A stretch of 64,000 bases of DNA from a virus (Duplodnaviria; Heunggongvirae; Uroviricota; Caudoviricetes), in the IMG/VR virus record IMGVR_UViG_3300049489_000540; one strand, written 5' to 3'. Both the position numbers and the translations under genes were made by a program. Position 1 is the stretch's first letter. The number at the start of each line of letters is the position of its first letter. The notes beneath the pieces are model-generated. The model ran no database searches. It was given only the letters and a program-made list of their open reading frames with translations, and had not been told where the DNA came from. Below are positions 36,548-51,401 of this stretch, piece after piece.

Positions 36548-36817
36548 ATGAAACGCAAAAAATGCTTTCAGAACCGTCTCTGTGATGCTAGTGTCATGGA
36601 GACGGTTTATACAAAACAACTTGATAGCTGTTATGCGAAAAGGCATGATGCTGGATATATTGCTTGGATCCCAGCGAGAGATAATATTTTACACAATGTT
36701 GGAACAAATCTATGGGAAAATATCGCAGAACATATACGCAATAAAGTTTCAGCACATATACTAAAGGATATATACACAAAGTCACAGCTTGAAGCAGCTT
36801 ACGGTAACTTATTATGA
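36548..36817 (+). CDS. family-2 mini-protein (divergent body, conserved C-terminal helix)
   Basis: ends ...TKSQLEAAYGNLL; ATGA overlap with next gene. Confidence 0.6.
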   Translation: MKRKKCFQNRLCDASVMETVYTKQLDSCYAKRHDAGYIAWIPARDNILHNVGTNLWENIAEHIRNKVSAHILKDIYTKSQLEAAYGNLL

Positions 36818-37062
36818 TGATAGTGAGCGATAATGTTTGGTGTAAAATAGCACACGATATTTCGCTTCGTCTTGCTGATATTTTATCAAAAAGGGATATT
36901 GAACATTCTGCTCAATACGATGTTATTAATAATGTCAGGACATTGGTTCATAACAATGTTATAGATAATGTTAAAGACCATGTTAGTACATATGCCAGTT
37001 GTTACACAAAACCAACCAGATCACAGCTTGAAGCAGCTTACAAGGTCTTGGGGCAGATATGA
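36814..37062 (+). CDS. family-2 mini-protein
   Basis: V-x-x-N/H tetrapeptide repeats; ends TRSQLEAAYKVLGQI; ATGA overlap. Confidence 0.65.
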   Translation: MMIVSDNVWCKIAHDISLRLADILSKRDIEHSAQYDVINNVRTLVHNNVIDNVKDHVSTYASCYTKPTRSQLEAAYKVLGQI

Positions 37063-37313
37063 AACTTGTTAGCGTTTATGAAGATGTTAGTGCGAATGTT
37101 TACCAGAATGTCATGACCGCTGTCTGGGATAATATCAGGACTAATGTCAAGGATAATGTCTGGAATACTGTCAGAAATAATGTCTGGAATAATATCTGGA
37201 ATAATATCTGGAATAATACCAAGATTAATGTTGAGGATAATGTCAGGAATACTATCAGAAATGATGTCGTTGCTGATTCGCAGCTTGAAGCAGCTTACGG
37301 TAACTTGTTGTAG
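37059..37313 (+). CDS. family-2 mini-protein
   Basis: VWDNIRTNVKDNVWNTVRNNVWNNIWNNIWNN tetrapeptide repeats; ends DSQLEAAYGNLL. Confidence 0.65.
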   Translation: MKLVSVYEDVSANVYQNVMTAVWDNIRTNVKDNVWNTVRNNVWNNIWNNIWNNTKINVEDNVRNTIRNDVVADSQLEAAYGNLL

Positions 37314-37627
37314 CTCGATCGCGTCTTAAGATACATGATCACCAATAGACCAAGAGCCATTGGTGTAGAAAGCCACCATGGCATCCAATTGTTGCTGATG
37401 ATTTGGATATATTGTTCTTTACCAATAATATCTTGATTTATACTTATTGCGAGTATTCCCACAATTGTTCCAGCATCAAATCCTCGCATGTAGTCTTCTT
37501 GTACTTTTGCGGCTTTGAAGAAGAAATGTCGAAGAATAACAAATATCACAAGAAGTGTTACTATATACATATTATCACTCCTTCGGCTTTTCGACTGATG
37601 CTTTTGGTGTGTATGGCATGATGCCAC
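37295..37627 (-). CDS. small integral membrane protein
   Basis: 110 aa with 3 hydrophobic segments. Confidence 0.45.
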   Translation of the reverse strand: MASCHTHQKHQSKSRRSDNMYIVTLLVIFVILRHFFFKAAKVQEDYMRGFDAGTIVGILAISINQDIIGKEQYIQIISNNWMPWWLSTPMALGLLVIMYLKTRSSYNKLP

Positions 37628-37850
37628 CAGCGGAAGTCATCAAGAATTGCTGTCCTTGTGGATCAGTTAAAAGATATACTTTAGGAGCAGCCACCTTTGG
37701 AATAAGGTCAGTTGTGCATGACCAATCAGGCTGGATTGGTTTTGTTTGCGTTGTTGGTTCTCCTTGCAACATTAATGCCGAAAGGATAACCACGACACAT
37801 GCAGCGACAACGCCAATGGCAATCGCAGCGTCTTTTGTAATTAATGTCAT
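37575..37850 (-). CDS. single-TM protein, paralog of 44091..44369
   Basis: N-terminal TM AIAIGVVAACVVVILSAL; shared C-terminal motif GQQFLM...MPYTPKA versus GQQFMV...LPYTVPA. Confidence 0.5.
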   Translation of the reverse strand: MTLITKDAAIAIGVVAACVVVILSALMLQGEPTTQTKPIQPDWSCTTDLIPKVAAPKVYLLTDPQGQQFLMTSAGGIMPYTPKASVEKPKE

Positions 37851-37988
37851 GGTGATTCCTTGGTTATTTGAATACTATCGAAGTGTTTCTTAGCGGTGTA
37901 TACATGTATTCCGATAACGATACAACTTACCAGGCACACGACAAAAAGCGCATATGCTGATATAAGTACCATTTTCTCATACGGACTC

Positions 37989-38267
37989 TTAAGATGCATC
38001 ATTCTCTTTTTCCTTTAAAAGTTTTGCATACAACATATCTGCATGTCGTATGGCTTGAACCATATTCTTACCATAATCAGCAACAGCAATCTTGGGTCCG
38101 TAGATATGACATATCCAGCCATCTATATAGCGGCGACACCGTACCTTTTTTTTAATTTGCTGGGGGTTTATCGGTCTTGACATGTGCTTCAAATCACGGA
38201 GCATGTTGGAAACAGCCCATTCCATGTCTCGCATTTTGTGAAGCCTTCGACAGTACGCTTGATGCAT
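37989..38267 (-). CDS. hypothetical basic protein
   Basis: 92-aa ORF. Confidence 0.4.
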   Translation of the reverse strand: MHQAYCRRLHKMRDMEWAVSNMLRDLKHMSRPINPQQIKKKVRCRRYIDGWICHIYGPKIAVADYGKNMVQAIRHADMLYAKLLKEKENDAS

Positions 38268-38335
38268 AGTTGTAGTATCCTATCGTCATTTTATAGCTCT
38301 GCAACACTTTAATTATCTGCTATTAATAGCAACCA

Positions 38336-38626
38336 TTAATCACCGAAAATCATTTTCTCAACATACTTTTTTGCTTCTTCAATATCAACAAATCGTATTT
38401 CATCATCATTAAATTTTAAAACACTTTCCAATCGAGGAATGAAATACCCATCTATCGTTTCAATACTGGCAATGTATGCACGACCAATCGCATAGTGCCA
38501 GGTTCCAGCTTGTGTGAGTTCTCGAAGCCACTCTGGCTTATATCGGCTCAATTCTGTTTGAGCAACGGCAAGAGCGTCTTGCAGTTCTGTATTTTGCTTC
38601 TCTAGAGAATCGGTATATTCGCTCAT
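38336..38626 (-). CDS. family-1 protein
   Basis: N-term MSEYTDSLEKQNTELQDALAVAQTELSRYKPEW. Confidence 0.65.
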   Translation of the reverse strand: MSEYTDSLEKQNTELQDALAVAQTELSRYKPEWLRELTQAGTWHYAIGRAYIASIETIDGYFIPRLESVLKFNDDEIRFVDIEEAKKYVEKMIFGD

Positions 38627-38958
38627 GCGTATCGTTTAAGTATTTCTTCTTCAAAGGCTTTCATAGCTTCTGCTGGGGTATCATATACTTTATTATGAGA
38701 TATGTTATCTATGGGTTCATCATCGCGTTTTTTGAAAAAAAGATTATATTTCCTATCTTTTTCTCGTAACCAAACCGACCCAAACGAATAATATCTTTTT
38801 CCATATAGCACATTTGTTGTGACGAATTCATAGTTTTCATCTTTGCATCGTACAGTTTTTATCCACTTGGGTTTCCATTTCGACAAGTCATGTTCAGTCT
38901 CGGCAAGCCGCTGTTCCAGTTCAAGAACATGCTGCTCTAGTGACTCGGTGTAAACCAT
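38623..38958 (-). CDS. family-1 protein
   Basis: N-term MVYTESLEQHVLELEQRLAETEHDLSKWKPKW; ATGA overlap. Confidence 0.65.
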   Translation of the reverse strand: MVYTESLEQHVLELEQRLAETEHDLSKWKPKWIKTVRCKDENYEFVTTNVLYGKRYYSFGSVWLREKDRKYNLFFKKRDDEPIDNISHNKVYDTPAEAMKAFEEEILKRYA

Positions 38959-38997
38959 AAGCAGCTATCCTATACCCTATATGCAGTTTTTCAACAA

Positions 38998-39354
38998 CTA
39001 TTTTTTAGATGTATACGGTACAACAGTACGACCATGGGCATAATTCCTCAACATATCAATGTCATAAATGGACCCACAAGGATTACAACGGTCTTTAACT
39101 GACTTATATAGTCTGCTACTGCTATATGGCGTTGGCGACGATAATGGAACCACATAAACAACGTCCAGCATCGGAACAACCACCAAATCAGCAGTAATAT
39201 TCAAAGCAGCTTCTCTAGAAACATTACCATCACAAATAACAACGAATCGTGTATTGTTTTGTAAATCTTCAACTGTCTTTTGTTGAATAGCAAGCTGCTC
39301 TTGCAGTTCCTCGATGTGTAATTCCAATTGGCGGGTATAGGATTTATGCTGCAT
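38998..39354 (-). CDS. family-1 protein
   Basis: MQHKSYTRQLELHIEELQEQLAIQQKTVEDL from an internal Met; 11-nt overlap with upstream gene. Confidence 0.55.
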   Translation of the reverse strand: MQHKSYTRQLELHIEELQEQLAIQQKTVEDLQNNTRFVVICDGNVSREAALNITADLVVVPMLDVVYVVPLSSPTPYSSSRLYKSVKDRCNPCGSIYDIDMLRNYAHGRTVVPYTSKK

Positions 39355-39667
39355 ATTTAGGTCCAAATAGCACTTCGACATGCGCTTTCGCCTCTTCAAT
39401 CGAAGTAAAAAATTTCTGCACAGGAGGACTCATATCAACATGATATTTACTGTCATCGGTTATTGATTGCCGTATGGTAGCTAAACAGATACCGTTGATC
39501 ATATATTTTGTGTACCAACTGAAAATTGCTCTTGGTGGCTGTGCAGCATCTTCCCATCGCGGAACCAATCGTTGTAGTGCTTCAACTTTAGCTTCCGATA
39601 CTGCAAGCTGCTCTTGCAGTTCTTCAATGTGCTGTTCTAGGTCCAACACATAACTCACAAAACACAT
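39344..39667 (-). CDS. family-1 protein
   Basis: N-term MCFVSYVLDLEQHIEELQEQLAVSEAKVEALQRL. Confidence 0.65.
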   Translation of the reverse strand: MCFVSYVLDLEQHIEELQEQLAVSEAKVEALQRLVPRWEDAAQPPRAIFSWYTKYMINGICLATIRQSITDDSKYHVDMSPPVQKFFTSIEEAKAHVEVLFGPKYAA

Positions 39668-40062
39668 CCTTTGAATAACACGATTTCTTTAAATGTTTCT
39701 TGCATGTACACGGTCCCATCTTCATCTTTTGCCACGCGAGTAAACCCTTGAACACGGATACACGCATGTGCAATCATGAATCCTTGTTGTATGTTTTCTG
39801 CATGCGTCACAAACATATACCATGGGAGATAGTTTGGCAATTCTGGCATATCAACTGTAAATTTACGCTTAATAAGATCATGGGCTACGGATCTTGTTAT
39901 CTCTTCACGCAATCCTGTTATTCCATGTTCTTTGGTGTAATTAATATGAAGTTCGTAGTAATACCGTGGTCTATGCCACAGCCAATCATTGGTTGCTTGC
40001 TCTTTAGCAAGCAACTCTTGTAGCTGCTCAATATGCTCTTCAAGTTGCTTCGAGTAGCTCAT
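39655..40062 (-). CDS. family-1 protein
   Basis: N-term MSYSKQLEEHIEQLQELLAKEQATNDWLW. Confidence 0.65.
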   Translation of the reverse strand: MSYSKQLEEHIEQLQELLAKEQATNDWLWHRPRYYYELHINYTKEHGITGLREEITRSVAHDLIKRKFTVDMPELPNYLPWYMFVTHAENIQQGFMIAHACIRVQGFTRVAKDEDGTVYMQETFKEIVLFKGCVL

Positions 40063-40424
40063 CGGTGTAGCTCATACATAATTTTTATATTTGTTGTTTT
40101 TGCACTCATTCCGTCAAACTCGTCATGGTTATGGTAAGGAAGAGCAACCAATGTGAGCATGAATGTTCTTATATGCTTTTTTGGAAACATAGCCATGAGA
40201 AGGAAATCTATTCCATTCTCTTTAATACTTTTCAGCATGCGAGTCATATGACTTCGAACGATGAATCGCCGTTGAGATTCTTCATCCGTTTCATGAAGCA
40301 TAACATAGTAAAAGTGTAATCTTTGCCTTTCTTTCCAGGCAATGAATGCCCGAGCCTCACTAAGCAACTCTATAAGCTGCTCGTTCTGCTTTTCCAGAGA
40401 TTCAGTGTAGGCTTTAGAGTTCAC
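40059..40424 (-). CDS. family-1 protein
   Basis: N-term MNSKAYTESLEKQNEQLIELLSEARAFIAWKE; ATGA overlap. Confidence 0.65.
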   Translation of the reverse strand: MNSKAYTESLEKQNEQLIELLSEARAFIAWKERQRLHFYYVMLHETDEESQRRFIVRSHMTRMLKSIKENGIDFLLMAMFPKKHIRTFMLTLVALPYHNHDEFDGMSAKTTNIKIMYELHR

Positions 40425-40698
40425 TTGTCTCTTTATTGGTATTACGATTAGCTATACCATAACTCGCCTCTTCGCTCCGTCGATACCGCGCCAGGTACGC
40501 ACCATATAGCCGACCTCGTTCATCTGGACTGTGTGTTGATAGTTTCCGACCCTTAATACGATCCGACAATCGACACCATTCTTCGTAGGTCATCGGTGGC
40601 AATCGTTTCAACAACGGATCATTCTTACGGTATTTAACTACCTTGACCGATCCAAGTCCCCTGGTAGCTCCTACAAAGTTGTGTGAGTGTATGCCCAT
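40414..40698 (-). CDS. hypothetical basic protein
   Basis: 94-aa ORF, Arg/Lys-rich. Confidence 0.4.
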   Translation of the reverse strand: MGIHSHNFVGATRGLGSVKVVKYRKNDPLLKRLPPMTYEEWCRLSDRIKGRKLSTHSPDERGRLYGAYLARYRRSEEASYGIANRNTNKETSEL

Positions 40699-40709
40699 AA
40701 GTTATATCT

Positions 40710-41072
40710 TTATATGTATTTTTCTTTGTACTCTTTATGAACCATATCCATAGCCTTGAAAATTTTCTCCATATGTTGTTTCACTTCGTCAAATGTTCTG
40801 AAATCACTAAATTTAAACTCCCATTTATCATCCGAAAATACTTTATATAAGTCTTCCGAGTAAGAAATACAAAATTTACTACTGGCATGTTGTCGAGTCA
40901 CAGAACAGAGAATTATTGTGGACATATATAATTTTGCTTCAAATACATTGTGTCGTGGTTTTGGATTTATGAACCACTCTGGTGTCCACCTTTCGGCTAC
41001 TGCCAGGCGCTCCGTCAAATCCTCATTCCGCCTTTCTAATTCGGCTACATACTGTTGCATGGGGGTCGGCAT
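40710..41072 (-). CDS. family-1 protein
   Basis: N-term MPTPMQQYVAELERRNEDLTERLAVAERWTPEW. Confidence 0.6.
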   Translation of the reverse strand: MPTPMQQYVAELERRNEDLTERLAVAERWTPEWFINPKPRHNVFEAKLYMSTIILCSVTRQHASSKFCISYSEDLYKVFSDDKWEFKFSDFRTFDEVKQHMEKIFKAMDMVHKEYKEKYI

Positions 41073-41075
41073 ATG

Positions 41076-41348
41076 TTATTTTCCAGAACGCTGCCGCCTC
41101 GGCTTCACGGTACCCCAGCGTGTCTTGTCCCGATCCGGCAGCGTCTTTCGTCCCTTGATCGACACAAACTGCGCCTTGTCAGGAAAGTCAGCGACTCCAA
41201 GATACAAGTGCCGTATGGTATTCAACATAGGATACTTGTCCACATCAAGGTCCATATAATGCAGATACTCACATACCCGCATAAAGGCTATGAATTCCTT
41301 GGTGTCTTTACACTGAATATGCATGGTGAGCCACATGCTACATAACAC
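41076..41348 (-). CDS. hypothetical protein
   Basis: 90-aa ORF. Confidence 0.4.
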   Translation of the reverse strand: MLCSMWLTMHIQCKDTKEFIAFMRVCEYLHYMDLDVDKYPMLNTIRHLYLGVADFPDKAQFVSIKGRKTLPDRDKTRWGTVKPRRQRSGK

Positions 41349-41384
41349 ATGCCATTTTTCAAGACATATTCTAAAAACAGCAGC

Positions 41385-41412
41385 TTGACTATTTCCTAAA
41401 GCCTATTAGTAT
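41385..41412 (+). promoter_or_regulatory. sigma70-like promoter TTGACT-N16-TAGTAT upstream of the + family-2 array; near-duplicate of 43786..43813
   Basis: cttgactatttcctaaagcctattagtatcaacc versus cttgactattttttaaaacctactagtatcacc. Confidence 0.55.
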
Positions 41413-41460
41413 CAACCATGTGTCATTTTATAGGTACTGTGAATTACTCAAAGGATTGAC

Positions 41461-41742
41461 ATGAACATTGTTAAATACAATGCTTGTAGAGACATTTGCC
41501 TTTATCATGTCATGGATAGTGTTAAGAATGATGTTGGCATGCTTATGCATAACGAAATAGAACACAACATTACGAAGTTCGTTACCAGCCTCGTTTTCGA
41601 TAATATTGAAACTCACGTTGAGTCTTCCGTAGACGATAATGTATGGGAACCTGTATGGGATAGTATGTTCAGTAATGTTGTATGTAAAATATTTACGGAT
41701 TCACAGCTTGAAGCGGCATTTGCAGCACTGGAGCGGATATGA
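41461..41742 (+). CDS. family-2 mini-protein (array 2, gene 1)
   Basis: SD aaagga; V-x-x-x-V-x-x-N octad/tetrad repeats; ends DSQLEAAFAALERI; ATGA overlap. Confidence 0.65.
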   Translation: MNIVKYNACRDICLYHVMDSVKNDVGMLMHNEIEHNITKFVTSLVFDNIETHVESSVDDNVWEPVWDSMFSNVVCKIFTDSQLEAAFAALERI

Positions 41743-42005
41743 AATCCATTATTAACGATGTTTGCGATACTCTGGATAAGTTAGATAATGTTGAAGGTAT
41801 CAGAATATATATTCAGGAGCATGCTTCGGTGCGTGCATATAATCCAGTCTGGGACATTGTTCAGTTAACTGTCTGGGATAATGTCTGGGAGAATGTGTTA
41901 AACCATCTTGATGCTGAAATTACAAGCACATTTTGTCATATGAAATATAAAAGATTCACCAAATCACAGCTTCAAGCCGCTTACCAGGCACTGGAGCAGC
42001 TATGA
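41739..42005 (+). CDS. family-2 mini-protein
   Basis: ends KSQLQAAYQALEQL; ATGA overlap. Confidence 0.65.
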   Translation: MKSIINDVCDTLDKLDNVEGIRIYIQEHASVRAYNPVWDIVQLTVWDNVWENVLNHLDAEITSTFCHMKYKRFTKSQLQAAYQALEQL

Positions 42006-42253
42006 AGGATAATGTGAGGGTCCGTATATGGGTTGATGTTCGTAGCAACATCATAGATAATGTTTGGAGTATTCTCAAACGGATCATTAGGGAACATACT
42101 GGTGTTAACGTCAGAAATAGTGTATGGGATAATATTCCAGAGCGCACTACGGATGACATGGAGGGTCTTACGAAGCCACATATCATGCATCATCTATGTA
42201 AGTCAACGGACCAACAGCTTGAAGCTGCTTACTTAGCACTGGAGCGGATATGA
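42002..42253 (+). CDS. family-2 mini-protein
   Basis: ends DQQLEAAYLALERI; ATGA overlap. Confidence 0.65.
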   Translation: MKDNVRVRIWVDVRSNIIDNVWSILKRIIREHTGVNVRNSVWDNIPERTTDDMEGLTKPHIMHHLCKSTDQQLEAAYLALERI

Positions 42254-42513
42254 ACCAGAGCCATCATAGAGATATTGTGATACGCCATGAAATAAAGGAT
42301 TATGTTGGTAGTATTGTCAGAAGTAAAGTTATAAGTCGTTGTGTAGACAAAGTAAAAGCTAATACCTTGGGTAATGTGTATGCTGATGCTACATCACATA
42401 TTCGTGATAATGTTAGGAGTTTTATTGATACAAATACTATAGCTAATGTTGGAAAAAGATCATGTACAGATTCACAGCTTGAAGCAGCTTACCAGTCACT
42501 GGAGCAGATATGA
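42250..42513 (+). CDS. family-2 mini-protein
   Basis: ends DSQLEAAYQSLEQI; ATGA overlap. Confidence 0.65.
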   Translation: MNQSHHRDIVIRHEIKDYVGSIVRSKVISRCVDKVKANTLGNVYADATSHIRDNVRSFIDTNTIANVGKRSCTDSQLEAAYQSLEQI

Positions 42514-42767
42514 TCGAGGATTATATAAAAGATTCTGTCTTGGAAACTATTCGGTCAACAACCAGTAACCGTTTAGATTCTATTATCATGGATAAGGCTT
42601 ATGACATTATGGATATTGTCAGAGAGAATGTTTGGGATCATCTTGATGGCAGTATATGGTCTAATGTCGATATGAATGTTAGGAATCAAATATGTCATGT
42701 TGCCCGTTATCAGTTGTTCACTCATTCACAGCTTGAAGCAGCTTATACCGTATTGGAGCAGATATGA
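42510..42767 (+). CDS. family-2 mini-protein
   Basis: ends HSQLEAAYTVLEQI; ATGA overlap. Confidence 0.65.
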   Translation: MIEDYIKDSVLETIRSTTSNRLDSIIMDKAYDIMDIVRENVWDHLDGSIWSNVDMNVRNQICHVARYQLFTHSQLEAAYTVLEQI

Positions 42768-43015
42768 GTAATGCAAAAAATGAAGAAATTTTATGGTGTA
42801 AACTCTGGAATAAGATCAAACAACGAAGCTGGAGTGTTGTCGCAAATAGTAATAGGGTTCACAATGTTCATGCTCATATCTGGACCAATGTTGATAATAG
42901 GATTGATTCGTGGCTCATGAGACATATACGGTCGGAAGTTAAGGAGACTATTCGTGATCGTAGATATGCTGAATTGCAACTTGAGGCAGCTTACCAGGCA
43001 CTGGAGCAGATATGA
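42764..43015 (+). CDS. family-2 mini-protein
   Basis: ends ELQLEAAYQALEQI; ATGA overlap. Confidence 0.65.
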   Translation: MSNAKNEEILWCKLWNKIKQRSWSVVANSNRVHNVHAHIWTNVDNRIDSWLMRHIRSEVKETIRDRRYAELQLEAAYQALEQI

Positions 43016-43263
43016 AACGTATATATATCCAAGTCAACGAAAAGGTTTGGGATGCGGTTAAGAAAGCAACAGATAGGCATATAAAACAGACATTTAAATA
43101 TGGTGTAGATCCCGTCAGCAGGCATGTTGATGATGTTGTCTACGATAATGTTTGGAATAATGTCTTGATGCATATTCGTATACGAGTAAACCATTCCAAC
43201 ATACGCAGATTATATACTGATTCGCAGCTTGAAGCCGCTTATGAGTCGCTGGAGGGATTATGA
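43012..43263 (+). CDS. family-2 mini-protein
   Basis: ends DSQLEAAYESLEGL; ATGA overlap. Confidence 0.65.
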   Translation: MKRIYIQVNEKVWDAVKKATDRHIKQTFKYGVDPVSRHVDDVVYDNVWNNVLMHIRIRVNHSNIRRLYTDSQLEAAYESLEGL

Positions 43264-43505
43264 ACCGATGTGAAAATACAGCCATCAATGATGTTTGGGA
43301 TAATATCTTATACAAAGCGCGGGAAGCCGTTAGATTCAGCATCGATAATGAATTATTTGAATTTGTTGAACTTCATATCGATATGAGAGTCCACAGTAGT
43401 GTGTGGAGTAACATCGGTGCCCCGACTTTTAACATGAATTTTAAACATATAATATGCACAGATTCGCAGCTTGAAGCCGCTTACCAGGCACTGGAGCAGT
43501 TATGA
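43260..43505 (+). CDS. family-2 mini-protein
   Basis: ends DSQLEAAYQALEQL; ATGA overlap. Confidence 0.65.
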   Translation: MNRCENTAINDVWDNILYKAREAVRFSIDNELFEFVELHIDMRVHSSVWSNIGAPTFNMNFKHIICTDSQLEAAYQALEQL

Positions 43506-43789
43506 TACTGGATGATATTTTCGCGGCTACTACGAATACTTCTGAGGGTACAATTAGACATGGTGTTGCGTCCATTGCCAAGACGAGAATCAAAGATAAT
43601 GTCGATGAGAATGATTATTGGAGCGTGTGGAACAGTGTGTTGGTTAGTAGTAGGAGTAATGTTATGGATAATGTCAATGAACATATCGCTAATAATACTT
43701 TGCGCAAATTCAAATACTTTTTCAGAGATGCGTCAATTACTGATTCGCAGCTTGAGGCTGCATATGCTGCTTTAAAAACTACAACTTGA
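43502..43789 (+). CDS. family-2 mini-protein (last of array; modified C-terminus)
   Basis: ends DSQLEAAYAALKTTT; stop overlaps the duplicated promoter. Confidence 0.6.
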   Translation: MILDDIFAATTNTSEGTIRHGVASIAKTRIKDNVDENDYWSVWNSVLVSSRSNVMDNVNEHIANNTLRKFKYFFRDASITDSQLEAAYAALKTTT

Positions 43790-43813
43790 CTATTTTTTAA
43801 AACCTACTAGTAT
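43786..43813 (+). promoter_or_regulatory. sigma70-like promoter TTGACT-N16-TAGTAT (duplicate of 41385..41412)
   Basis: -10 ends 10 nt before the ATG at 43824, so a near-leaderless transcript. Confidence 0.5.
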
Positions 43814-43823
43814 CACCAGTGTA

Positions 43824-43985: not shown

Positions 43986-44090
43986 GCTAAGGAATCTTAT
44001 GATTGGTTTCGTGCTTATTTCAGCATGCTTTATTTTTCTAATCGTCGCTATTCTCTTTATCCTATTTAAATCTGATAGGCAATAACGGGA

Positions 44091-44369: not shown

Positions 44370-44419
44370 AGTTTATTTCTCCGTGCATATTATAGTTGTA
44401 TATGTATAAAGTCAATGGT

Positions 44420-44674
44420 CTACGGTGACTCTTCCATAACTCTGTAAGCTGCTTGAAGTTGTGATTCTGTAAATGATGCGTATTCGAAATGAGCAATAGT
44501 AATAGCTCTAATGTTCCATCCAACATTATTCCAAACATTAATTCCAGTATTATCATCTATATGATCTCCGACTAAAATCCAATCATCCTCACCGACATGA
44601 GTTCTGACAGCACCGTAGCTTTTAACTCTGATACTTATCCCAACATCAGGATCTACATTATGTAGGATTTTCAT
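44420..44674 (-). CDS. family-2 mini-protein (minus array, last gene)
   Basis: ends ESQLQAAYRVMEESP. Confidence 0.6.
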   Translation of the reverse strand: MKILHNVDPDVGISIRVKSYGAVRTHVGEDDWILVGDHIDDNTGINVWNNVGWNIRAITIAHFEYASFTESQLQAAYRVMEESP

Positions 44675-44922
44675 ATCCGCTCAGTCGCTTCATAAGATGC
44701 TCGAAGCTGTGAATCAGTGAACGATGTATATCCGACAGTATCATGAACATTATTCCAGACATTGCGTTTGATATTAATCCATATATTATCATGAATATTA
44801 GCTCTGATATAAGCTCCGACATAAGTTAATGCAATAGTTTCAGCACCACGCCCGATAATACCATGTGCATTGCTCCATATATCAGCCTTGACAGTTTCCA
44901 AGACACTATTTTTAACTCTCAT
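44671..44922 (-). CDS. family-2 mini-protein
   Basis: ends DSQLRASYEATERI; ATGA overlap. Confidence 0.65.
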   Translation of the reverse strand: MRVKNSVLETVKADIWSNAHGIIGRGAETIALTYVGAYIRANIHDNIWINIKRNVWNNVHDTVGYTSFTDSQLRASYEATERI

Positions 44923-45158
44923 ATCCGCTCCAATGCTTCAAATGCCGCTTCAAGTTGTGATTCGACATTCTTTTTACTAATGAATGTAGACGAAACCACA
45001 TGTCCGATATTGCGTCTGACATGATCTATGACATTAGCACTGACATTATTAAATATATTATTCGTGACAATGTGCATGATGTCAGCACCAACATGATTCT
45101 CGGCATTATCAAAGCCATTTTGTAAGATCCGGTTTTTGACAAGATTCCTGACATTCAT
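44919..45158 (-). CDS. family-2 mini-protein
   Basis: ends VESQLEAAFEALERI; ATGA overlap. Confidence 0.65.
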   Translation of the reverse strand: MNVRNLVKNRILQNGFDNAENHVGADIMHIVTNNIFNNVSANVIDHVRRNIGHVVSSTFISKKNVESQLEAAFEALERI

Positions 45159-45394
45159 ATCTGCTCCAATGCTGCATAAGCACCTTCAAGCTGCGAATTG
45201 GTACATGAATTTCTTTTAAACCTAGTCTTGACCGTATCTCTAACATTCATATAGAAATTGGTTCTGACATTGGCTCTGACATGAAACCAGACCTTACCTT
45301 GAAGATTATTTCTGACATTATTCTTGATATAAGACCATGTACTGTCTCTGACATCACTTCTAATATCTTTTGTAATACCTAGCATAATACTCAT
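45155..45394 (-). CDS. family-2 mini-protein
   Basis: ends TNSQLEGAYAALEQI; ATGA overlap. Confidence 0.65.
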   Translation of the reverse strand: MSIMLGITKDIRSDVRDSTWSYIKNNVRNNLQGKVWFHVRANVRTNFYMNVRDTVKTRFKRNSCTNSQLEGAYAALEQI

Positions 45395-45672
45395 ATTTTC
45401 TCCATTGCTGCATACGCTGCTTCAAGCTGCGAATACATGTGTGGTAGTCCGCGTCCGTAGTTGAATCTATTTCTGACATCCTCCCAAACACGATCACCCA
45501 CATTAGCCCATACATTGACTCTGACAGTATTTCTAACATTCATAAAAATAAGAGCAATATTACCATTATTATTTTTATCTATACAAATATCAGCTTTATA
45601 TCGGGCAAGCTTTAAGACAGTATAATCGACACTACCCCAAATATTATCCCAGACATATTCATCTGTACTCAT
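45391..45672 (-). CDS. family-2 mini-protein
   Basis: ends MYSQLEAAYAAMEKI; ATGA overlap. Confidence 0.65.
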   Translation of the reverse strand: MSTDEYVWDNIWGSVDYTVLKLARYKADICIDKNNNGNIALIFMNVRNTVRVNVWANVGDRVWEDVRNRFNYGRGLPHMYSQLEAAYAAMEKI

Positions 45673-45914
45673 ATCCGCTCCAATGCTGCATAAGCGGCTT
45701 CAAGTTGCGAATCATCATGTAGTGATTTGAATGCGAAATTATCTACAGTATCATAATAAACATGACTACCGACATTAGCCCATACGGTATCTCTGACAGT
45801 ATTTCTGATATTAATATAAACATCATTAACATATTCACACTTATCAGCTTTAGATCGAGCAACACCAAAGACATTATCTCTGACATCTTTCCAGCAATTA
45901 TGTCCAAACATCAT
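45669..45914 (-). CDS. family-2 mini-protein
   Basis: ends DDSQLEAAYAALERI; ATGA overlap. Confidence 0.65.
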   Translation of the reverse strand: MMFGHNCWKDVRDNVFGVARSKADKCEYVNDVYINIRNTVRDTVWANVGSHVYYDTVDNFAFKSLHDDSQLEAAYAALERI

Positions 45915-46162
45915 AGCTGCTCCAGTGCTTCGTAAGCTGCTTCAAGCTGCTGGTTTGTATATACTTTACGAATAGTATAACTTTTAACATACATTCTGGC
46001 ATTACTCCTGACATTATCGGAGACATTGGTACTGACAAATGCTAAAATATAATCCACAGCATCGGCTCTGACGCCAATCTCAACATTACTCGCAGAATTT
46101 ATCCTGGCTTGAGCCTTAATACTATCCCAGACATAAGCCAAAACAGATTTATCTACTCTCAT
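45911..46162 (-). CDS. family-2 mini-protein
   Basis: ends NQQLEAAYEALEQL; ATGA overlap. Confidence 0.65.
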   Translation of the reverse strand: MRVDKSVLAYVWDSIKAQARINSASNVEIGVRADAVDYILAFVSTNVSDNVRSNARMYVKSYTIRKVYTNQQLEAAYEALEQL

Positions 46163-46476
46163 ATTTGCTCCAGTGACTTGTAAGCGGCTTCAATCTGCGA
46201 ATCACATTCACATTCAATTTTATATTCAAGATTGGTGTCAACATGTTTAGCCACATGAGCATAAATGTGAGCCTCAACACCAAGCCAAACATTTCTTTCA
46301 ACACGCTCCCAAATATTACTCTCAACAAGGTTGAAGATAGATAGCTTGGTTTGTTTAAAAACAACAGCCTTAGCGGTATGTCCAATGTCAGACCAGACAT
46401 TGACCCGAACATCGTTACGGACAACATGCATGTTGCTACACCTATCGTTGCATTTAAGCTTACGAGTATTCTTCAA
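46159..46476 (-). CDS. family-2 mini-protein (true start may be the internal Met at 46431)
   Basis: ends CDSQIEAAYKSLEQI; NVWxxV repeats. Confidence 0.6.
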   Translation of the reverse strand: MKNTRKLKCNDRCSNMHVVRNDVRVNVWSDIGHTAKAVVFKQTKLSIFNLVESNIWERVERNVWLGVEAHIYAHVAKHVDTNLEYKIECECDSQIEAAYKSLEQI

Positions 46477-46535
46477 AAAGTCAACAATGACTTTTTAAAG
46501 TACCTATGAATGTAAACACATGCAGCTAAAGGTGT

Positions 46536-46844
46536 TTATTCCAATGCGGCATAAGCAGCTTCGAGTTGACTTTCGATATTTGGTGTGTTGAGGAAATTAC
46601 CTCTGATATTTCCGTCAACATTATTACTGACATTTTCAATAACATTATCCCAAACATTCCTATTTACATGAATCTTAACATTATCAAAAACACGAACATT
46701 GGTATTATTCTTGACATGATTCCTGGTACGATTCTTGACACTATCCCAAACCTTTGTCATGACATCGTTCCAGACAGCATTTTTGACATGAAGCCTGGTA
46801 CTGATCTTCATGACATCGTTCCAGACAGCATTTTTGACACTCAT
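46536..46844 (-). CDS. family-2 mini-protein (first gene of minus array; internal 31-nt duplication)
   Basis: ends IESQLEAAYAALE; the VKNAVWNDVM segment appears twice because of the direct repeat catgacatcgttccagacagcatttttgaca; ATGA overlap with the regulator gene. Confidence 0.6.
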   Translation of the reverse strand: MSVKNAVWNDVMKISTRLHVKNAVWNDVMTKVWDSVKNRTRNHVKNNTNVRVFDNVKIHVNRNVWDNVIENVSNNVDGNIRGNFLNTPNIESQLEAAYAALE

Positions 46845-47749
46845 ATCTGCTCACCTTCGACTTCGCGGACATAGGGAATGAGGTCGGGATGCCGCTTACG
46901 CCACCCATACACCAGCGCATGGAAACTCTGTATTTTATCTTCCTTACCAAACGACCTGGCAATATCTGAAATGGATTCACCATTGCGCATGCGCCGACCA
47001 ATATTCTCTGGTGTATATCCTTCGGGGCGAACCCAGCCATATGGCTGACGCTTCGGCATATCAATGCCACGCTTCCGTAAACGGTTCACATGTTGTATGG
47101 CACTACCGATAGAACATTTCATTGCCAGAGCGATTTCTTCGTAGGTCTTGCCTTCATGCCACAGTGCGATCAATCGCTTCTCACGACTAATGGTGCTGAT
47201 TCCTCTGGTCGCCATGCGATACCGAATACGATCAAATTTTACACCCAATGTTTCACGCATGAGAGTTGATTTGTTTGGATCATCGTCCACACACAAATAC
47301 TCCAATCGACGCTTCAATTCTTCCACGCCGATATGCAGCCGCGCACAGACTTCCTTCACAGCAGCTTCACCTTTCTCTCGCTGCCGCTCGACGAACAGAT
47401 CCTTCACATTCATGTCGAATATGCCGCGCAATTCACCAGCCAAGTATCGTGTCAGACCAGCAGGAGCAGGATCTTTCACATGCTCTCGCAATTGATCCTC
47501 AGTCATACCCAGCATCTTGCAGCATCCTTGGACTCGCTTTTCGTTTTGAAATTCCCGCTTGTCCATGAGCCTGGCTGTCTCGTCGGACAGAAAACCATAT
47601 GCTCGTTGTAATGCATGAAAGGTAGCACAGTCGATACCTAGCCGCTGGTTGCACTTGGTCTGTAACAGTCGGATGACAGCAGATGTGTCGGCTGCTCCCG
47701 TATGAGCAGCAATCTTCCGCATCCATGTATCTTTTTTGTCTTTGTTCAT
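46841..47749 (-). CDS. DNA-binding regulator with sigma-70 region-4/LuxR-type HTH (paralog of 26229..26891), first gene of the family-2 minus-array operon
   Basis: 302 aa; HTH LIALWHEGKTYEEIALAMKCSIGSAIQHVNRLRKRG; ~50% GC; stop overlaps the ATG of 46536..46844. Confidence 0.65.
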   Translation of the reverse strand: MNKDKKDTWMRKIAAHTGAADTSAVIRLLQTKCNQRLGIDCATFHALQRAYGFLSDETARLMDKREFQNEKRVQGCCKMLGMTEDQLREHVKDPAPAGLTRYLAGELRGIFDMNVKDLFVERQREKGEAAVKEVCARLHIGVEELKRRLEYLCVDDDPNKSTLMRETLGVKFDRIRYRMATRGISTISREKRLIALWHEGKTYEEIALAMKCSIGSAIQHVNRLRKRGIDMPKRQPYGWVRPEGYTPENIGRRMRNGESISDIARSFGKEDKIQSFHALVYGWRKRHPDLIPYVREVEGEQI

Positions 47750-48116: not shown

Positions 48117-48356
48117 ATGGCTACCAATAAGCATGAGCGGAATTACCTGAGATTTGTCGAAGCTCAACAGAACGAGGTCATCAATGAACGGAACCGATTC
48201 CAGACCCAGCTAACGCTGTCGATTTACGATCTGGAAACCATCATCTGCCTTCTGCCGCCCGGCAGACTCAGTGCCAAACTCCAAGGTGCGCTCAAGCATG
48301 CTGAACAACAGTTCAAAATACGAGATGTCGATTTCGGTGATTTGAAAGAGGACTGA
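48117..48356 (+). CDS. hypothetical small protein
   Basis: 79 aa; stop overlaps the next gene's ATG at 48356. Confidence 0.45.
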   Translation: MATNKHERNYLRFVEAQQNEVINERNRFQTQLTLSIYDLETIICLLPPGRLSAKLQGALKHAEQQFKIRDVDFGDLKED

Positions 48357-48640
48357 TGAAGTCCTATACGCAGCAGCTTGAGGAACATATTGAGCAGCTA
48401 CAACAGTCGCTTGCCAAGACGCAAGCACATTCGTTACAGTGGTATAAGGTTTCACCACGACTATACGAATTCCGTGTAGGTGCATATGCCATTGGTAAAG
48501 TCGAAAAATACAATGATCATTGGGTAGCTATGATCATTGCAAAAGGATTCAATAACGGATCGGGTGGATTCTGCGTACATCAGACGCCGGAAGCCGCCAA
48601 GATGGATGTAGAGGAAACCATATTCAGTACCATACCATGA
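48356..48640 (+). CDS. family-1 protein
   Basis: N-term MKSYTQQLEEHIEQLQQSLAKTQAHSLQWYKV. Confidence 0.65.
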   Translation: MKSYTQQLEEHIEQLQQSLAKTQAHSLQWYKVSPRLYEFRVGAYAIGKVEKYNDHWVAMIIAKGFNNGSGGFCVHQTPEAAKMDVEETIFSTIP

Positions 48641-49149
48641 GCGAATACACCACAAAACTAGAGAACCATATCGAGCAACTGGAAGAGCAGCTTGCCGATG
48701 CTGAACGGAAACTTGCCAAGTTTCCATCCATCAATAAACGAGATATCAATCCCGAGTATATGACCAGCCCCATGTATCCATTCTTGCAAAAGCTGCATGC
48801 GCTGCCAGGAATCATGGTTGATTGGGTACATCCACATGCACCTATTATTGAAAGTTTTGCAATTAAAATAGGTTTTACAGCAATACCATGTTATGACAAT
48901 ATTGGTCTATGGATCTTTCTGCGTGCCATAAACCAGAGATATTGGAATTATGCTGATGATTGGATGTTAGAATCAGCCATAGATGATGTCAGTATCCGCA
49001 CGCGGTTCGTGTTCCTTTCGAAAAAACCATATAAAGAAGCCAAATCCGAATTAGATAATCTTGGACGGCAAATAGATTTCATAGTCAATCATCCGAATTT
49101 ATCTCAAGATTTTGGCATCACCAAAGAACGATTACATGAACCCGTATGA
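48637..49149 (+). CDS. family-1 protein
   Basis: N-term MSEYTTKLENHIEQLEEQLADAERKLAKF; ATGA overlap. Confidence 0.65.
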   Translation: MSEYTTKLENHIEQLEEQLADAERKLAKFPSINKRDINPEYMTSPMYPFLQKLHALPGIMVDWVHPHAPIIESFAIKIGFTAIPCYDNIGLWIFLRAINQRYWNYADDWMLESAIDDVSIRTRFVFLSKKPYKEAKSELDNLGRQIDFIVNHPNLSQDFGITKERLHEPV

Positions 49150-49472
49150 GCAGCTACACACAACAACTAGAAGAACACATCGAGCAGCTACAAGAGAAAC
49201 TTACCCGTGCTGAAACATTACTGCATGCATCTGTTGTCTTAACATGGTATCGACTGCCTAAAAATGAAAACCGATGGGATTTGATGATCATAGGAATTCC
49301 AAATACGCATATTGCGACAATATTACGATTTCAAGATTATTATCAATTATCATGGGCAGGAACAAACCCAATATATATTCCATCGAATTATCCGTCGCTT
49401 AAACAAGCACAAGACGAAGCACGGGAAATTCTCAAGGTACGCGCCGAGTCATACATTAAAATCGCATTGTGA
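49146..49472 (+). CDS. family-1 protein
   Basis: N-term MSSYTQQLEEHIEQLQEKLTRAETLLHAS; ATGA overlap. Confidence 0.65.
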   Translation: MSSYTQQLEEHIEQLQEKLTRAETLLHASVVLTWYRLPKNENRWDLMIIGIPNTHIATILRFQDYYQLSWAGTNPIYIPSNYPSLKQAQDEAREILKVRAESYIKIAL

Positions 49473-49762: not shown

Positions 49763-49763
49763 G

Positions 49764-50222
49764 CTATTTTCGATGTGCTATTTGATCAGCAACTTCGCCA
49801 GTAGCATTTTTGAGAGCCTCGATCTTGATTCCCAGCTTGGTGGATATCTCTTGTAAGTATGCACTCATGCTCACGACCGTTTCACGACCGTCCACCGTAT
49901 AGATCATAACCATATTGGCAGTTGCATACATAGGAAACTCTTGGCTCGCAATTACCCGCAATGCAGCGATTCCCAACATGTCCACACACGGATCATCACG
50001 AACCAATATCACACCACGGATCTTCGCATTCCCCGTAGACTTATGGATGAAACCTAAACAGAGAACCCGCATATCGGAACCATCAGGAGAACCATGCATA
50101 CCATCAATGGAATAGAATTTATGCCTATATGCAGGATCAGCAATCTCTTGGCTCACATGCGAATGCAAGCGAGCGTCCATAACAGCCGTGTACTCGGTGA
50201 GCGGAATGTTGGTGTAGAGCAT
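49764..50222 (-). CDS. hypothetical protein
   Basis: 152-aa ORF, 1-nt gap to previous. Confidence 0.5.
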   Translation of the reverse strand: MLYTNIPLTEYTAVMDARLHSHVSQEIADPAYRHKFYSIDGMHGSPDGSDMRVLCLGFIHKSTGNAKIRGVILVRDDPCVDMLGIAALRVIASQEFPMYATANMVMIYTVDGRETVVSMSAYLQEISTKLGIKIEALKNATGEVADQIAHRK

Positions 50223-50225
50223 GGT

Positions 50226-50501
50226 TCAAACGACCTTGACCGTATAGGTTTTCTGGACTTGAACCTTAACGGGTTTCAGAGCATGGTAACGACAATAGAC
50301 GCATTGCTTGATCCAATCCCTGACTGATTGACGGGTATCCCATATGGCTGCACTTTGAATACGATCCGTGAATTGCAGTCCAGTATATCCATGGTCAGTT
50401 GTAAGCTGCTCATAGAACTTACCACAGTCACTACGGATAGCCCACATGTAGTCCGTTTCGACCGTCGAGTAGACCCAGGCATTGTTCACGGTGCGTTTCA
50501 T
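50226..50501 (-). CDS. hypothetical protein
   Basis: 91-aa ORF. Confidence 0.45.
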   Translation of the reverse strand: MKRTVNNAWVYSTVETDYMWAIRSDCGKFYEQLTTDHGYTGLQFTDRIQSAAIWDTRQSVRDWIKQCVYCRYHALKPVKVQVQKTYTVKVV

Positions 50502-50554
50502 AGGGCACTCCTTGTGCCACTATACTAGCAGCCGTTTTTCAAAACGCAAGAGGC

Positions 50555-50830
50555 TTATTTTTCAGTAACTATTTTATAAGCTGCTTCAAGCTGCGAATCC
50601 GTGAACAATTCATTACTAACATACCCACTGACGCAAGCCCAAACAATGGTCCCAATAATATCCCATACTCTACCTCCAATATTCCTTCGAATATTCGCAC
50701 CAACCAGATCGACAATATCGTTCTCGACACGATACATAACACAATTATACGCCATATCACCGCACTGGTTCCGCACATCACAACCAACATTAAGAACATT
50801 TACAAACACATCCGTTCGTAATTGCTTCAT
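50555..50830 (-). CDS. family-2 mini-protein
   Basis: ends FTDSQLEAAYKIVTEK. Confidence 0.6.
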   Translation of the reverse strand: MKQLRTDVFVNVLNVGCDVRNQCGDMAYNCVMYRVENDIVDLVGANIRRNIGGRVWDIIGTIVWACVSGYVSNELFTDSQLEAAYKIVTEK

Positions 50831-51102
50831 AGCTGCTCCAGTGACTCATAAGCTGCTTCAAGCTGTGAATCCGTATGTGTGTTAGCTTTGATATTATTCC
50901 AAACATGAACATAGACCCTATCCTTGACACTACGTTTGATATTGGTCAACGTATGATCCCGCATATGAGTCAAAGCATAATTCCAAACAGCAGCCTTGGA
51001 ATTACTTTTGACGGCATTCCAGCCGCTGTCCCCGACATATTTCCTGACTAATAAATGAATAGGCGCACTACAAATCATGTCTTCAATAAAGTCACTACTC
51101 AT
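50827..51102 (-). CDS. family-2 mini-protein
   Basis: ends HTDSQLEAAYESLEQL; ATGA overlap. Confidence 0.65.
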   Translation of the reverse strand: MSSDFIEDMICSAPIHLLVRKYVGDSGWNAVKSNSKAAVWNYALTHMRDHTLTNIKRSVKDRVYVHVWNNIKANTHTDSQLEAAYESLEQL

Positions 51103-51401
51103 AGCCGCTCCAATGCCATATATGCTGCTTCAAGCTGCGACTTGGTTACTCTCGCTTCCATATCTTCCACACCAATGTCCCAAATATCATCCCTGATAGC
51201 ATCAATACGCTCGGTAGCATTCCAGACGTTCTCCACAACGAGATTCCAAACAATATTCGTAACATTCTTACCAATATGACTATGGAACGTATTCTTGACT
51301 TTGCGTATAACGCCATCCTCAACGTGATCCCATATACGATCATTGACTCTATCAAGAGTACGCATGCCGTTATACATTACTGTCATCTTTAAAAAGAGCA
51401 A
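51099..51401 (-). CDS. family-2 mini-protein
   Basis: ends TKSQLEAAYMALERL; ATGA overlap. Confidence 0.65.
   Translation of the reverse strand: MLFLKMTVMYNGMRTLDRVNDRIWDHVEDGVIRKVKNTFHSHIGKNVTNIVWNLVVENVWNATERIDAIRDDIWDIGVEDMEARVTKSQLEAAYMALERL

Follow-up and report, generated by a model that had tools for sequence, protein, structure and literature searches.

Tetrapeptide-repeat mini-proteins of a large uncultivated phage: free-standing counterparts of a repeat found inside DUF6745 proteins

We analysed a 64,000-nucleotide stretch of DNA (the window) from the Caudoviricetes record IMGVR_UViG_3300049489_000540 of IMG/VR, which carries four arrays of small genes encoding proteins built from four-residue repeats, called minis here. 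The listing of open reading frames (ORFs) and a six-frame scan of the window for the C-terminal motif of these proteins yielded 24 intact minis of 79 to 105 aa, at the coordinates and on the strands given in a preliminary description of the locus. Three minis form array 1 (36548-37313, +), nine array 2 (41461-43789, +), nine array 3 (44420-46844, -) and three array 4 (50555-51401, -). The two central arrays, 2 and 3, are convergent and span 5,384 bp (41461-46844), in agreement with the 5.4 kb reported before. Array 1 starts 8 nt past the stop codon of a gene for a DUF6745 protein, which follows a small gene that we call the partner; partner, DUF6745 and the minis from 36548 onward are thus contiguous. 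These genes are as follows.

35143..35586 (+): partner gene, 147 aa, with invariant RQGD, GSRH and HPEHAH
35626..36540 (+): DUF6745 protein, 304 aa, without an internal tetrapeptide repeat
36548..36817 (+): mini 1, array 1, 89 aa, tail SQLEAAYGNLL
36814..37062 (+): mini 2, array 1, 82 aa, ATGA overlap with its neighbour
37059..37313 (+): mini 3, last of array 1, 84 aa, 17 in-register repeats, AlphaFold2 query
41461..41742 (+): mini 4, first of array 2, 93 aa
41739..42005 (+): mini 5, array 2, 88 aa
42002..42253 (+): mini 6, array 2, 83 aa
42250..42513 (+): mini 7, array 2, 87 aa
42510..42767 (+): mini 8, array 2, 85 aa
42764..43015 (+): mini 9, array 2, 83 aa
43012..43263 (+): mini 10, array 2, 83 aa
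43260..43505 (+): mini 11, array 2, 81 aa
43502..43789 (+): mini 12, last of array 2, 95 aa, tail SQLEAAYAALKTTT
44420..44674 (-): mini 13, last of array 3, 84 aa, tail SQLQAAYRVMEESP
44671..44922 (-): mini 14, array 3, 83 aa
44919..45158 (-): mini 15, array 3, 79 aa
45155..45394 (-): mini 16, array 3, 79 aa
45391..45672 (-): mini 17, array 3, 93 aa, closest paralogue pair with mini 18 (51% identity)
45669..45914 (-): mini 18, array 3, 81 aa
45911..46162 (-): mini 19, array 3, 83 aa
46159..46476 (-): mini 20, array 3, after a gap of ~100 nt, 105 aa if started at TTG, 90 aa from the ATG at 46431
46536..46844 (-): mini 21, array 3, 102 aa, tail SQLEAAYAALE, start overlapping the stop of a helix-turn-helix (HTH)-like gene (ATGA)
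50555..50830 (-): mini 22, last of array 4, 91 aa, tail SQLEAAYKIVTEK
50827..51102 (-): mini 23, array 4, 91 aa, orthologue in contig L001 (59% identity)
51099..51401 (-): mini 24, array 4, 100 aa if started at TTG, 92 aa from the ATG at 51377, orthologue in contig L003 (53% identity)

The minis consist of a repeat body and a handle of ~15 residues only. The repeat unit is [V/I]-[W/R/K/G]-[D/N/A]-[N/Q/S], Asn or Asp being found at +2/+3 after the Val or Ile and at -1/-2 before it. V/I pairs at lags 4, 8 and 12 numbered 204, 181 and 159, compared with ~74, 69 and 66 expected from shuffled sequences (z = 18.7, 16.4 and 14.5), and all remaining lags were depleted. The hydrophobicity spectrum of the bodies peaked at exactly 90 degrees per residue, i.e., a period of 4.00, with background power at 100 degrees. 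Individual minis contain 4 to 20 in-register repeats, with one register shift in several of them, and their charge ranges from -9 to +7. The earlier claim of tandem period-4 mini-proteins with a conserved C-terminal segment is therefore borne out. The DNA of mini 3 shows the corresponding 12-nt period over 12.3 copies (Tandem Repeats Finder). Out-of-frame and antisense ORFs of 50 to 75 aa also run through the arrays (37144-37329, +; 45743-45907, -; 44658-44822, -; and others) and contain, for example, MSGI(L/I)SEIMSGI or NIIPNI; such ORFs arise as a side effect of the 12-nt periodicity and do not merit annotation as genes.

All 24 minis keep the SQLEAAY motif at the C terminus, with an invariant Gln and with Leu, both Ala and Tyr/Phe each conserved in at least 90% of the copies. 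The codons of this motif vary synonymously (TCA/TCG 10:10, CAG/CAA 19:5, TAC/TAT 11:11, and all four GCN codons), arguing for selection on the peptide. The residues that follow tell a different story at the nucleotide level. ATGA overlaps join 19 of the 24 minis to the next gene, and the consensus end CTG-GAG-CAG-ATA-TGA places GGAG ~7 nt ahead of the next ATG; as read from the sequence, the LEQI codons supply the following gene with its Shine-Dalgarno sequence and start codon. Among the 18 tails with the ending (L/M/T)Ex(I/L) ahead of an ATGA, 17 encode the second Glu by GAG, which makes the GGAG, and one has GGG instead; the first Glu is GAA in 19 of 21 tails. The terminal (A/S)LE(Q/R)(I/L) is present only where another gene comes next; the genes that end an array or sub-array (37059, 43502, 44420, 46536 and 50555) finish otherwise, without LEQI, and mini 36548 ends with GNLL despite its downstream gene. 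The GAG bias and the loss of LEQI from genes without a downstream neighbour indicate that the last four tail codons are largely a ribosome-binding and coupling cassette, a clear example of a dual coding constraint. What had been described as a conserved C-terminal helix is thus a conserved segment, but one whose conservation is in part a nucleic-acid constraint.

An independent assembly (Logan SRR35532292, contig L002) is identical to window positions 33260-46786 over 13,527 nt and covers arrays 1 to 3, showing that the arrays are not an assembly artefact. The mini paralogues are 25-35% identical to each other, and the only adjacent minis that are mutual nearest relatives are 45391 and 45669. 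The nearest paralogue is otherwise 2 to 20 genes away, which rejects the idea that tandem neighbours are recent duplicates and argues that the arrays are old and shuffled. Orthologues in the related contigs L001 and L003 (53-59% identity) retain the V/I and W positions and the tail, and the remainder has changed. In the least-saturated comparisons of the bodies, the ratio of nonsynonymous to synonymous substitution rates (dN/dS) was 0.68-1.13. The bodies thus appear to evolve fast under a constraint of periodicity, with a frozen handle that is uniform within one phage and different between lineages. Hypervariability between isolates, raised in the preliminary description, was not seen: the two assemblies are identical, and related phages carry diverged orthologues, not a mutational hotspot. 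At positions 8-481 of L001, two minis are fused in a single 157-aa ORF (…SQLGAAYKALGIHVFNK…) that has lost the stop/start junction, which indicates that junction mutations can concatenate units.

One might ask whether the minis have any protein function, since non-coding or decaying repeats, or selfish amplification, could leave incidental ORFs. The long ORFs that the 12-nt periodicity yields in other frames and on the opposite strand, and a dN/dS near 1 in the least-diverged pairs, would fit such an origin. However, all 24 frames are open and ATGA-joined, as are 23 in contig L005 and ~40 in L097; tail variation falls at third codon positions; Val/Ile and Trp positions are kept between orthologues of related phages; and the tail motif is kept across phages at ~50% protein divergence. 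We consider an absence of protein function very improbable indeed. By these sequence signatures, the 24 mini ORFs appear to be genuine, translationally coupled protein-coding genes of a large uncultivated phage.

We searched 1.84 billion representative proteins exhaustively with a profile of the minis, and 653 proteins matched at E <= 1e-3. Besides the minis of the window and four from other contigs, the top matches were proteins of 300 to 600 aa, the long proteins being matched through profile positions ~5-70, i.e., the repeat body. Of the 126 long proteins among the top 150 matches, 110 were homologues of the DUF6745 protein encoded at 35626-36540. These homologues align to it in two blocks (~1-66 and ~95-290) with the repeat between them, a site at which the window protein has only KKENPKATKKEIIAFAKKN. 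The best E-value among the DUF6745 matches checked was 1e-30 (P0012), with the caveat that low-complexity repeats inflate profile E-values. The long matches carry runs of DSVW/DSVR/ASVG, DQVW/AQVG or DKVW/AKVR, with a median of 21 and a maximum of 96 repeats per run (mostly fused DUF6745 proteins), and the per-position preferences are alike in minis and long matches (V/I/L; W/R/G/K/E; D/A/N/S; Q/S/N). AlphaFold2 packs the N- and C-domains that flank the cis repeat of DUF6745 proteins into one globule. A few other proteins (S8 peptidases, DUF5764 and a sacsin-like ATPase) contain the same repeat as a linker.

Fused DUF6745 proteins such as gp38 of prophage prophiGD102-1 and those of Planctomycetota metagenome-assembled genomes (MAGs) thus resemble the minis in repeat unit and per-position preferences. 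Their genes likewise share a neighbourhood with the RQGD/HPEHAH partner, which in the case of the minis also includes a DUF6745 gene. In contrast with the fused proteins, the minis lack the N-domain and the C-terminal DUF6745 domain, stand alone in 24 copies and possess an invariant handle that the fused proteins do not have. Each mini therefore looks like a free-standing copy of the repeat that is fused between the N- and C-domains of bacterial, prophage and many phage DUF6745 proteins. We also considered the tail as the detached first helix of the DUF6745 C-domain (YGQHDAxWLxFYDFF). This was not supported by hhalign (P = 0.23 over 6 columns), which placed QLEAAY against xHDAxW; one fused protein has GNLEASY at that site.

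The minis gave only noise against Pfam, PHROGs, NCBIfam and PADLOC, and none matched PF20530, the DUF6745 domain being in the neighbouring gene 35626-36540. For eight minis searched against Pfam, a pentapeptide-repeat (PF00805) match was absent even at E <= 10. Pentapeptide-repeat proteins (A(D/N)LXX, Qnr/MfpA), hexapeptide left-handed beta-helix (LbH) proteins and insect antifreeze proteins share with the minis a very short repeat with a central aliphatic residue and recurrent Asn/Asp. The pentapeptide-repeat fold is a right-handed quadrilateral beta-helix. Unlike those of these short beta-solenoids, the period of the minis is 4.00 and not 5, 6 or 12, no Pfam or PDB profile matched them, and AlphaFold2 predicts an alpha-helix. 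The minis match no established repeat family, neither pentapeptide-repeat nor antifreeze matches being found in Pfam, PHROGs, NCBIfam, PADLOC or PDB, as the preliminary description had anticipated. Literature searches returned no paper on DUF6745/PF20530, on the repeat, on tetrapeptide-repeat solenoids or on gp174 of Microcystis phage Ma-LMM01. Pfam lists DUF6745 (PF20530) only under unknown function, with a model that does not include the tetrapeptide repeat, and no described family accommodates the minis, the repeat unit or the partner protein. The family had been called undescribed and specific to this element. The first part holds, but the second does not, since more than 10 other contigs have minis and hundreds of proteins of the DUF6745 family contain the repeat. 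That description had also overlooked how the minis relate to the repeat-less DUF6745 gene next to them and to its conserved partner gene.

We then took a census of 80 further loci from a scan of metagenome contigs with a DUF6745 alignment, counting minis within ±8 kb. The combination of a repeat-less DUF6745 gene, the partner and minis (3 to ~40 copies) recurs in more than 10 further phage-like contigs from metagenomes (L004, L005, L097, L007, L009, L075, L071, L041, L025, L021 and L019), and the 304-aa repeat-less DUF6745 protein belongs to a clade of metagenome relatives. The distinguishing features of these contigs are the following.

L004: 386-kb contig, DUF6745 52% identical, 7-8 minis on both sides, tail THKQLEAAYELLEINYD
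L005: DUF6745 repeat-less, 23 near-perfect (NVxx)16-20 minis, tail FTDxQLELAFSNLEQL
L007/L008: DUF6745 repeat-less, 8-11 minis, 10-11 in L007, tail SQLNDSYKLLETI
L009: DUF6745 repeat-less, 5-6 minis, tail NKSFDFL
L097: ~40 minis, conserved head MINTDCVE, QVxx bodies
L075: minis with head MIQTQSQNNEIRQI
L041: minis with head MIQLNTKE
L025, L071 and L021: minis present
L019: QLxx-type minis, missed by the mini profile

Minis were found only beside a repeat-less DUF6745 gene, in low-GC phage-like contigs, and none was present at the loci of long cis-repeat DUF6745 proteins. Cis and trans presence of the repeat are thus complementary, and the three components are syntenic across many lineages. Minis imply a nearby repeat-less DUF6745 gene; the converse fails. 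The handle is conserved at the protein level in phages whose DUF6745 proteins are only 52% identical, with THKQLEAAYELLE in L004. A scan of IMG/VR for the tail pattern gave 30 pattern matches, none of which was confirmed.

In nearly every locus long enough, in phage-like contigs and bacterial MAGs (Planctomycetota, Binatota and Nitrospirota), a homologue of the ~140-aa partner adjoins DUF6745. More than 575 proteins make up the partner family, all of them unannotated, and searches of Pfam, PHROG, NCBIfam, PDB and PADLOC gave no assignment; no PADLOC model fits either DUF6745 or the partner. In Ma-LMM01 (L100, 3540-5071), partner and DUF6745 correspond to gp175 and gp174, both annotated as hypothetical. 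This pair is part of the replication module, with the DNA polymerase gp178 on one side and the uracil-DNA glycosylase gp173 on the other. In the Mycobacterium abscessus prophage prophiGD102-1, they correspond to gp37 and gp38, with ~50 cis (D/G)QL(W/R/G) repeats in gp38.

AlphaFold2, run on mini 37059-37313 with the 24 paralogues as alignment, gave a single continuous helix over residues 2-83 (predicted local distance difference test score, 84.7) with no fold-back. Of the two folds suggested earlier, an Asn-ladder beta-solenoid and a striped amphipathic helix, the first is thus disfavoured, and the second is left with a soft prediction and a period that does not suit it. On an alpha-helix, a period of 4.00 makes the Val stripe precess by ~40 degrees per repeat, with one right-handed wrap per ~36 residues. 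Modelled in this way, the repeat would fit neither an amphipathic monomer nor a known coiled-coil periodicity. The minis do not show the ~3.5-residue period of heptad coiled coils, their power at 100-104 degrees being at background. Right-handed coiled coils with 11- or 15-residue repeats (tetrabrachion, the YadA stalk) resemble them in having a period above 3.6 and a right-handed stripe, but 4.0 is well beyond 3.67 and 3.75, and neither sequence nor fold matched. The search of solved structures found no PDB match for the minis by sequence profile or by fold, and we know of no structural description of a strict 4-residue protein repeat running over at least 60 residues.

We tentatively propose that the minis act in trans with a core made of DUF6745 and its partner. 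That pair would constitute one core machine with which the minis work; the handle, here the C-terminal T-D-S-Q-L-E-A-A-Y, would be a common docking or assembly element; and the helical bodies, which vary from 4 to 20 repeats in length, from -9 to +7 in charge and also in surface, would provide a panel of exchangeable, alternative arms. We find this reading plausible, but our confidence in it falls somewhat short of even.

Several observations weigh against it. The mini-DUF6745 link is drawn from gene neighbourhood and from the complementary presence and absence of the repeat, and 21 of the 24 minis are encoded 5-15 kb away from the DUF6745 gene, interspersed with other genes. At many loci with a repeat-less DUF6745 gene (L018, L026, L029-L033, L049 and L054-L059), no mini could be detected within ~8 kb, indicating that minis are not obligatory for the repeat-less core. 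The E-values of low-complexity sequences are inflated, the period-4 repeats could in principle be convergent, and the phage protein Tweety gp54, discussed below, shows that such repeats can have an independent origin. The conserved element invariably occupies a gene junction, whether as an upstream gene's tail or a downstream gene's head, and its conservation may therefore partly serve coupling or recombination rather than docking. Lastly, the AlphaFold2 helix was modelled from a shallow, paralogue-only alignment, bodies rich in V, I, N and D are poor helix formers, and a 4.00-residue hydrophobic period misfits a straight amphipathic alpha-helix.

Alternatively, the minis might be subunits of a self-assembling fibre or bundle, i.e., a homo- or hetero-oligomeric helical rope or a solenoid-like filament that is independent of DUF6745, with the handle as oligomerisation nucleus and translational coupling ensuring equimolar synthesis. 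Single 82-residue helices without fold-back, as modelled here, are seldom stable as monomers, the right-handed winding of the period-4.00 Val/Ile stripe invites supercoiled packing, ATGA coupling over 9-gene arrays is typical of stoichiometric complexes, and 21 of the minis are not adjacent to DUF6745. However, a period of 4.0 is far from the 3.5, 3.67 and 3.75 of coiled coils, no solved structure matches by sequence or fold, and a dN/dS near 1 in the bodies is unusual for tightly packed structural subunits. Such an assembly also leaves unexplained why minis occur only beside a repeat-less DUF6745 gene and why the same repeat is found inside DUF6745 proteins. We deem it unlikely.

The partner's invariant His, Glu, Arg and Asp residues (HPEHAH, GSRH and RQGD) are suggestive of a metal site, which raises the question of whether the minis are substrates or precursors. 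In that case, they would be recognised through a leader or follower by DUF6745 and/or the His-rich partner and then modified or processed in the manner of ribosomally synthesised and post-translationally modified peptides (RiPPs); in bacteria, the substrate segment would be fused to the enzyme. A short invariant terminal motif attached to a variable core in 3 to ~40 copies per genome, with the motif C-terminal here and N-terminal in L097, L075 and L041, mirrors the leader/follower logic of RiPPs, and each repeat offers Asn, Asp, Gln or Ser side chains. Multi-copy RiPP precursors such as the prochlorosins similarly consist of many small paralogues with an invariant segment and a divergent rest, near a conserved pair of larger genes. 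The likeness is one of form only, an invariant handle (head-type in those three contigs) joined to bodies that are 25-35% identical. The variable part of the minis is a long regular repeat, its 60-80 residues being unlike known RiPP cores, and relatives carry this repeat within the putative "enzyme" itself, between two domains that AlphaFold2 packs as one globule, which looks structural. There is no cleavage motif. Domains of RiPP maturation enzymes (LanM, YcaO, radical S-adenosylmethionine (SAM)-SPASM, etc.) were absent from the neighbours in Pfam and NCBIfam searches, as were known RiPP or modification enzyme domains among the proteins scanned; a weak radical-SAM ORF is located at 12957-13904, 22 kb away. 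A substrate role thus appears quite doubtful to us.

To our knowledge, Tweety gp54 is the only characterised phage tetrapeptide-repeat protein. It has an N-domain followed by 48 A-A-[G/W/Q]-[S/Y] repeats and a C-domain, and the number of repeats differs between phages in proteins of the same type, Che8 gp57 and PMC gp51 (PMC2884959). Escape mutants that overcome the Phrann gp29/gp30 defence reportedly gain or lose gp54 repeats, suggesting that the juxtaposition of the end domains needs tuning to neutralise gp29/gp30 (PMC9262239, citing Dedrick et al. 2017). Like the minis, gp54 is phage-encoded with a strict 4-residue repeat, in which W and G alternate at one position, and its N-domain/repeat/C-domain layout parallels that of fused DUF6745 proteins. 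The minis nevertheless lack its unique flanking N- and C-terminal domains, and gp54 is a single gene with an Ala-rich repeat in cis, without stand-alone multi-copy minis, handle or RQGD/HPEHAH partner. Homology was rejected, as the hidden Markov models (HMMs) of the minis, DUF6745 and the partner, and also Pfam, all missed gp54. We thus regard it as an analogue and not a relative. By this analogy, the module probably plays a role in phage-host or phage-phage conflict, and a conflict-related function tuned by length and surface is the most economical guess.

A role in conflict could also be that of decoys. The minis would then mimic the repeat arm that host proteins of the DUF6745 type carry, or another helical or nucleic-acid-like ligand, and titrate a host factor independently of the phage's DUF6745 protein. 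Cis-repeat DUF6745 proteins do exist in bacteria and prophages, fast-diverging bodies and multiplicity are typical of arms-race genes, the minis lie among small early-type genes behind sigma-70-like promoter candidates, and a tetrapeptide-repeat protein, Tweety gp54, is reported to be a counter-defence factor (PMC9262239). Conversely, there is no host DUF6745 system to name, PADLOC has no model for DUF6745 or the partner, and every mini-bearing lineage keeps its own DUF6745/partner pair beside the minis, which a pure decoy role would not predict. We regard decoys as improbable.

A more elaborate version of the trans-acting reading, which we likewise rate as improbable, makes the repeat a new structural and recognition module; the detached arms would combine with DUF6745 and the partner into a split, combinatorial system for targeting in phage-host conflict. 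Each unit would display two variable side chains, at position 2 (W/R/G/E/K) and position 3 (D/A/N). If the repeat is an alpha-helix, each unit would advance by ~6 Å, with the Val stripe precessing by ~40 degrees per unit. A ligand of periodic build, for instance a filament, an extended nucleic-acid strand or a second repeat protein, might be read or measured by successive units, with DUF6745 and the HPEHAH partner as the effector. Bacteria and prophages would hard-wire one arm in cis, and large phages would carry 20-40 interchangeable arms that fit a single core by means of a common handle. Diversity-generating retroelements have a reverse transcriptase and a template/variable repeat pair with A-specific differences, whereas the minis keep their Asn conserved and the two assemblies are identical over 13.5 kb.

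No known system corresponds to a strict tetrapeptide repeat, fused or else detached and amplified, in a conserved three-gene module that bacteria, prophages and huge phages have in common. The same repeat unit occurs in hundreds of proteins and, uniquely here, as free-standing multi-copy genes, and its cis/trans alternation defines a conserved module of three components (RQGD/HPEHAH protein, DUF6745 and repeat) that spans Planctomycetota, cyanophages, mycobacterial prophages and huge phages. The detached form amounts to a natural dissection into core, arm and handle. By analogy with gp54, the arrays may represent a pre-diversified counter-defence arsenal; even if their function is mundane, the minis cleanly mark one clade of large phages that are uncultivated. 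The cultured cyanophage Ma-LMM01 offers a tractable system for testing the module.

Two loci with DUF6745 modules are close to genes of the CRISPR-Cas type. In L004 (12732-19447), the module is a few kb from genes for Cas1, a Cas3-like helicase and a Tad3-like protein, and in L018 (1-4304) it is a few kb from those for a Cas12-like protein and a Cas3-like helicase. Phage-encoded CRISPR-Cas-like genes are typical of huge phages.

Two further features of the window concern the expression of the arrays.

41385..41412 (+): sigma-70-like promoter candidate TTGACT-N16-TAGTAT, 49 nt upstream of array 2
46841..47749 (-): HTH-like gene, 302 aa, with weak helix-turn-helix matches, heading the array-3 operon

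Exact copies of TTGACT-N16-TAGTAT are found at 41385 (+), 43786 (+) and 51697 (-), that is, before array 2, just past array 2 and before the gene that heads array 4. Five matches with at most one mismatch were present against 0.42 expected, which is a match to consensus only. Generic promoter and terminator scans of 35-52.5 kb gave counts equal to shuffle expectation, and a TATAGGT motif was not enriched. The HTH-like protein ends with GAGCAGATATGA, a junction like those between minis, and leads into array 3; from this translational coupling, we infer that its gene belongs functionally with the array.

A second multigene family of 10 genes (94-170 aa) is interspersed between the mini arrays, at 38336-41072 (-) and 48356-49472 (+). 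Its members share a head, (S)YTxxLExHIExLQExLA, followed by unrelated variable C-terminal parts, a design that mirrors that of the minis, and they had no PHROG match. Just upstream of array 4, the gene at 51702-53006 (-) encodes a 434-aa protein with five tandem DUF4379 treble-clef zinc-finger repeats, two stretches of CapR homology and a weak DUF559 (endonuclease-like) C terminus. The 630-bp gap between arrays 2 and 3 encodes two small predicted membrane proteins, of 53 aa with two CxxC pairs (43823-43984, +) and of 92 aa (44091-44369, -). The small membrane proteins 37575-37850 and 44091-44369 were considered as paralogues, but BLASTP gave no alignment between them.

Neither the 50,697 phage records nor the E. 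coli genomes searched by megablast with the arrays and their flanks contained a match. The window encodes rIIB-like (8848-9786, -) and rIIA-like (9844-11991, -, HATPase_c_3) proteins, whose best tblastn identity to known phages is 25-29%; the presence of rIIA/rIIB homologues indicates that the element is a large lytic-type phage. At ~54 kb, the GC content jumps from 0.38-0.44 to 0.53-0.55 (54000-64000). This high-GC part had no match to E. coli genomes; it contains a gene for a phrog_850 RNA-binding protein (Ro/TROVE-like; DUF2828/DUF7788) at 61339-62709 and a tRNA-Leu(TAA) gene at 62754-62839.

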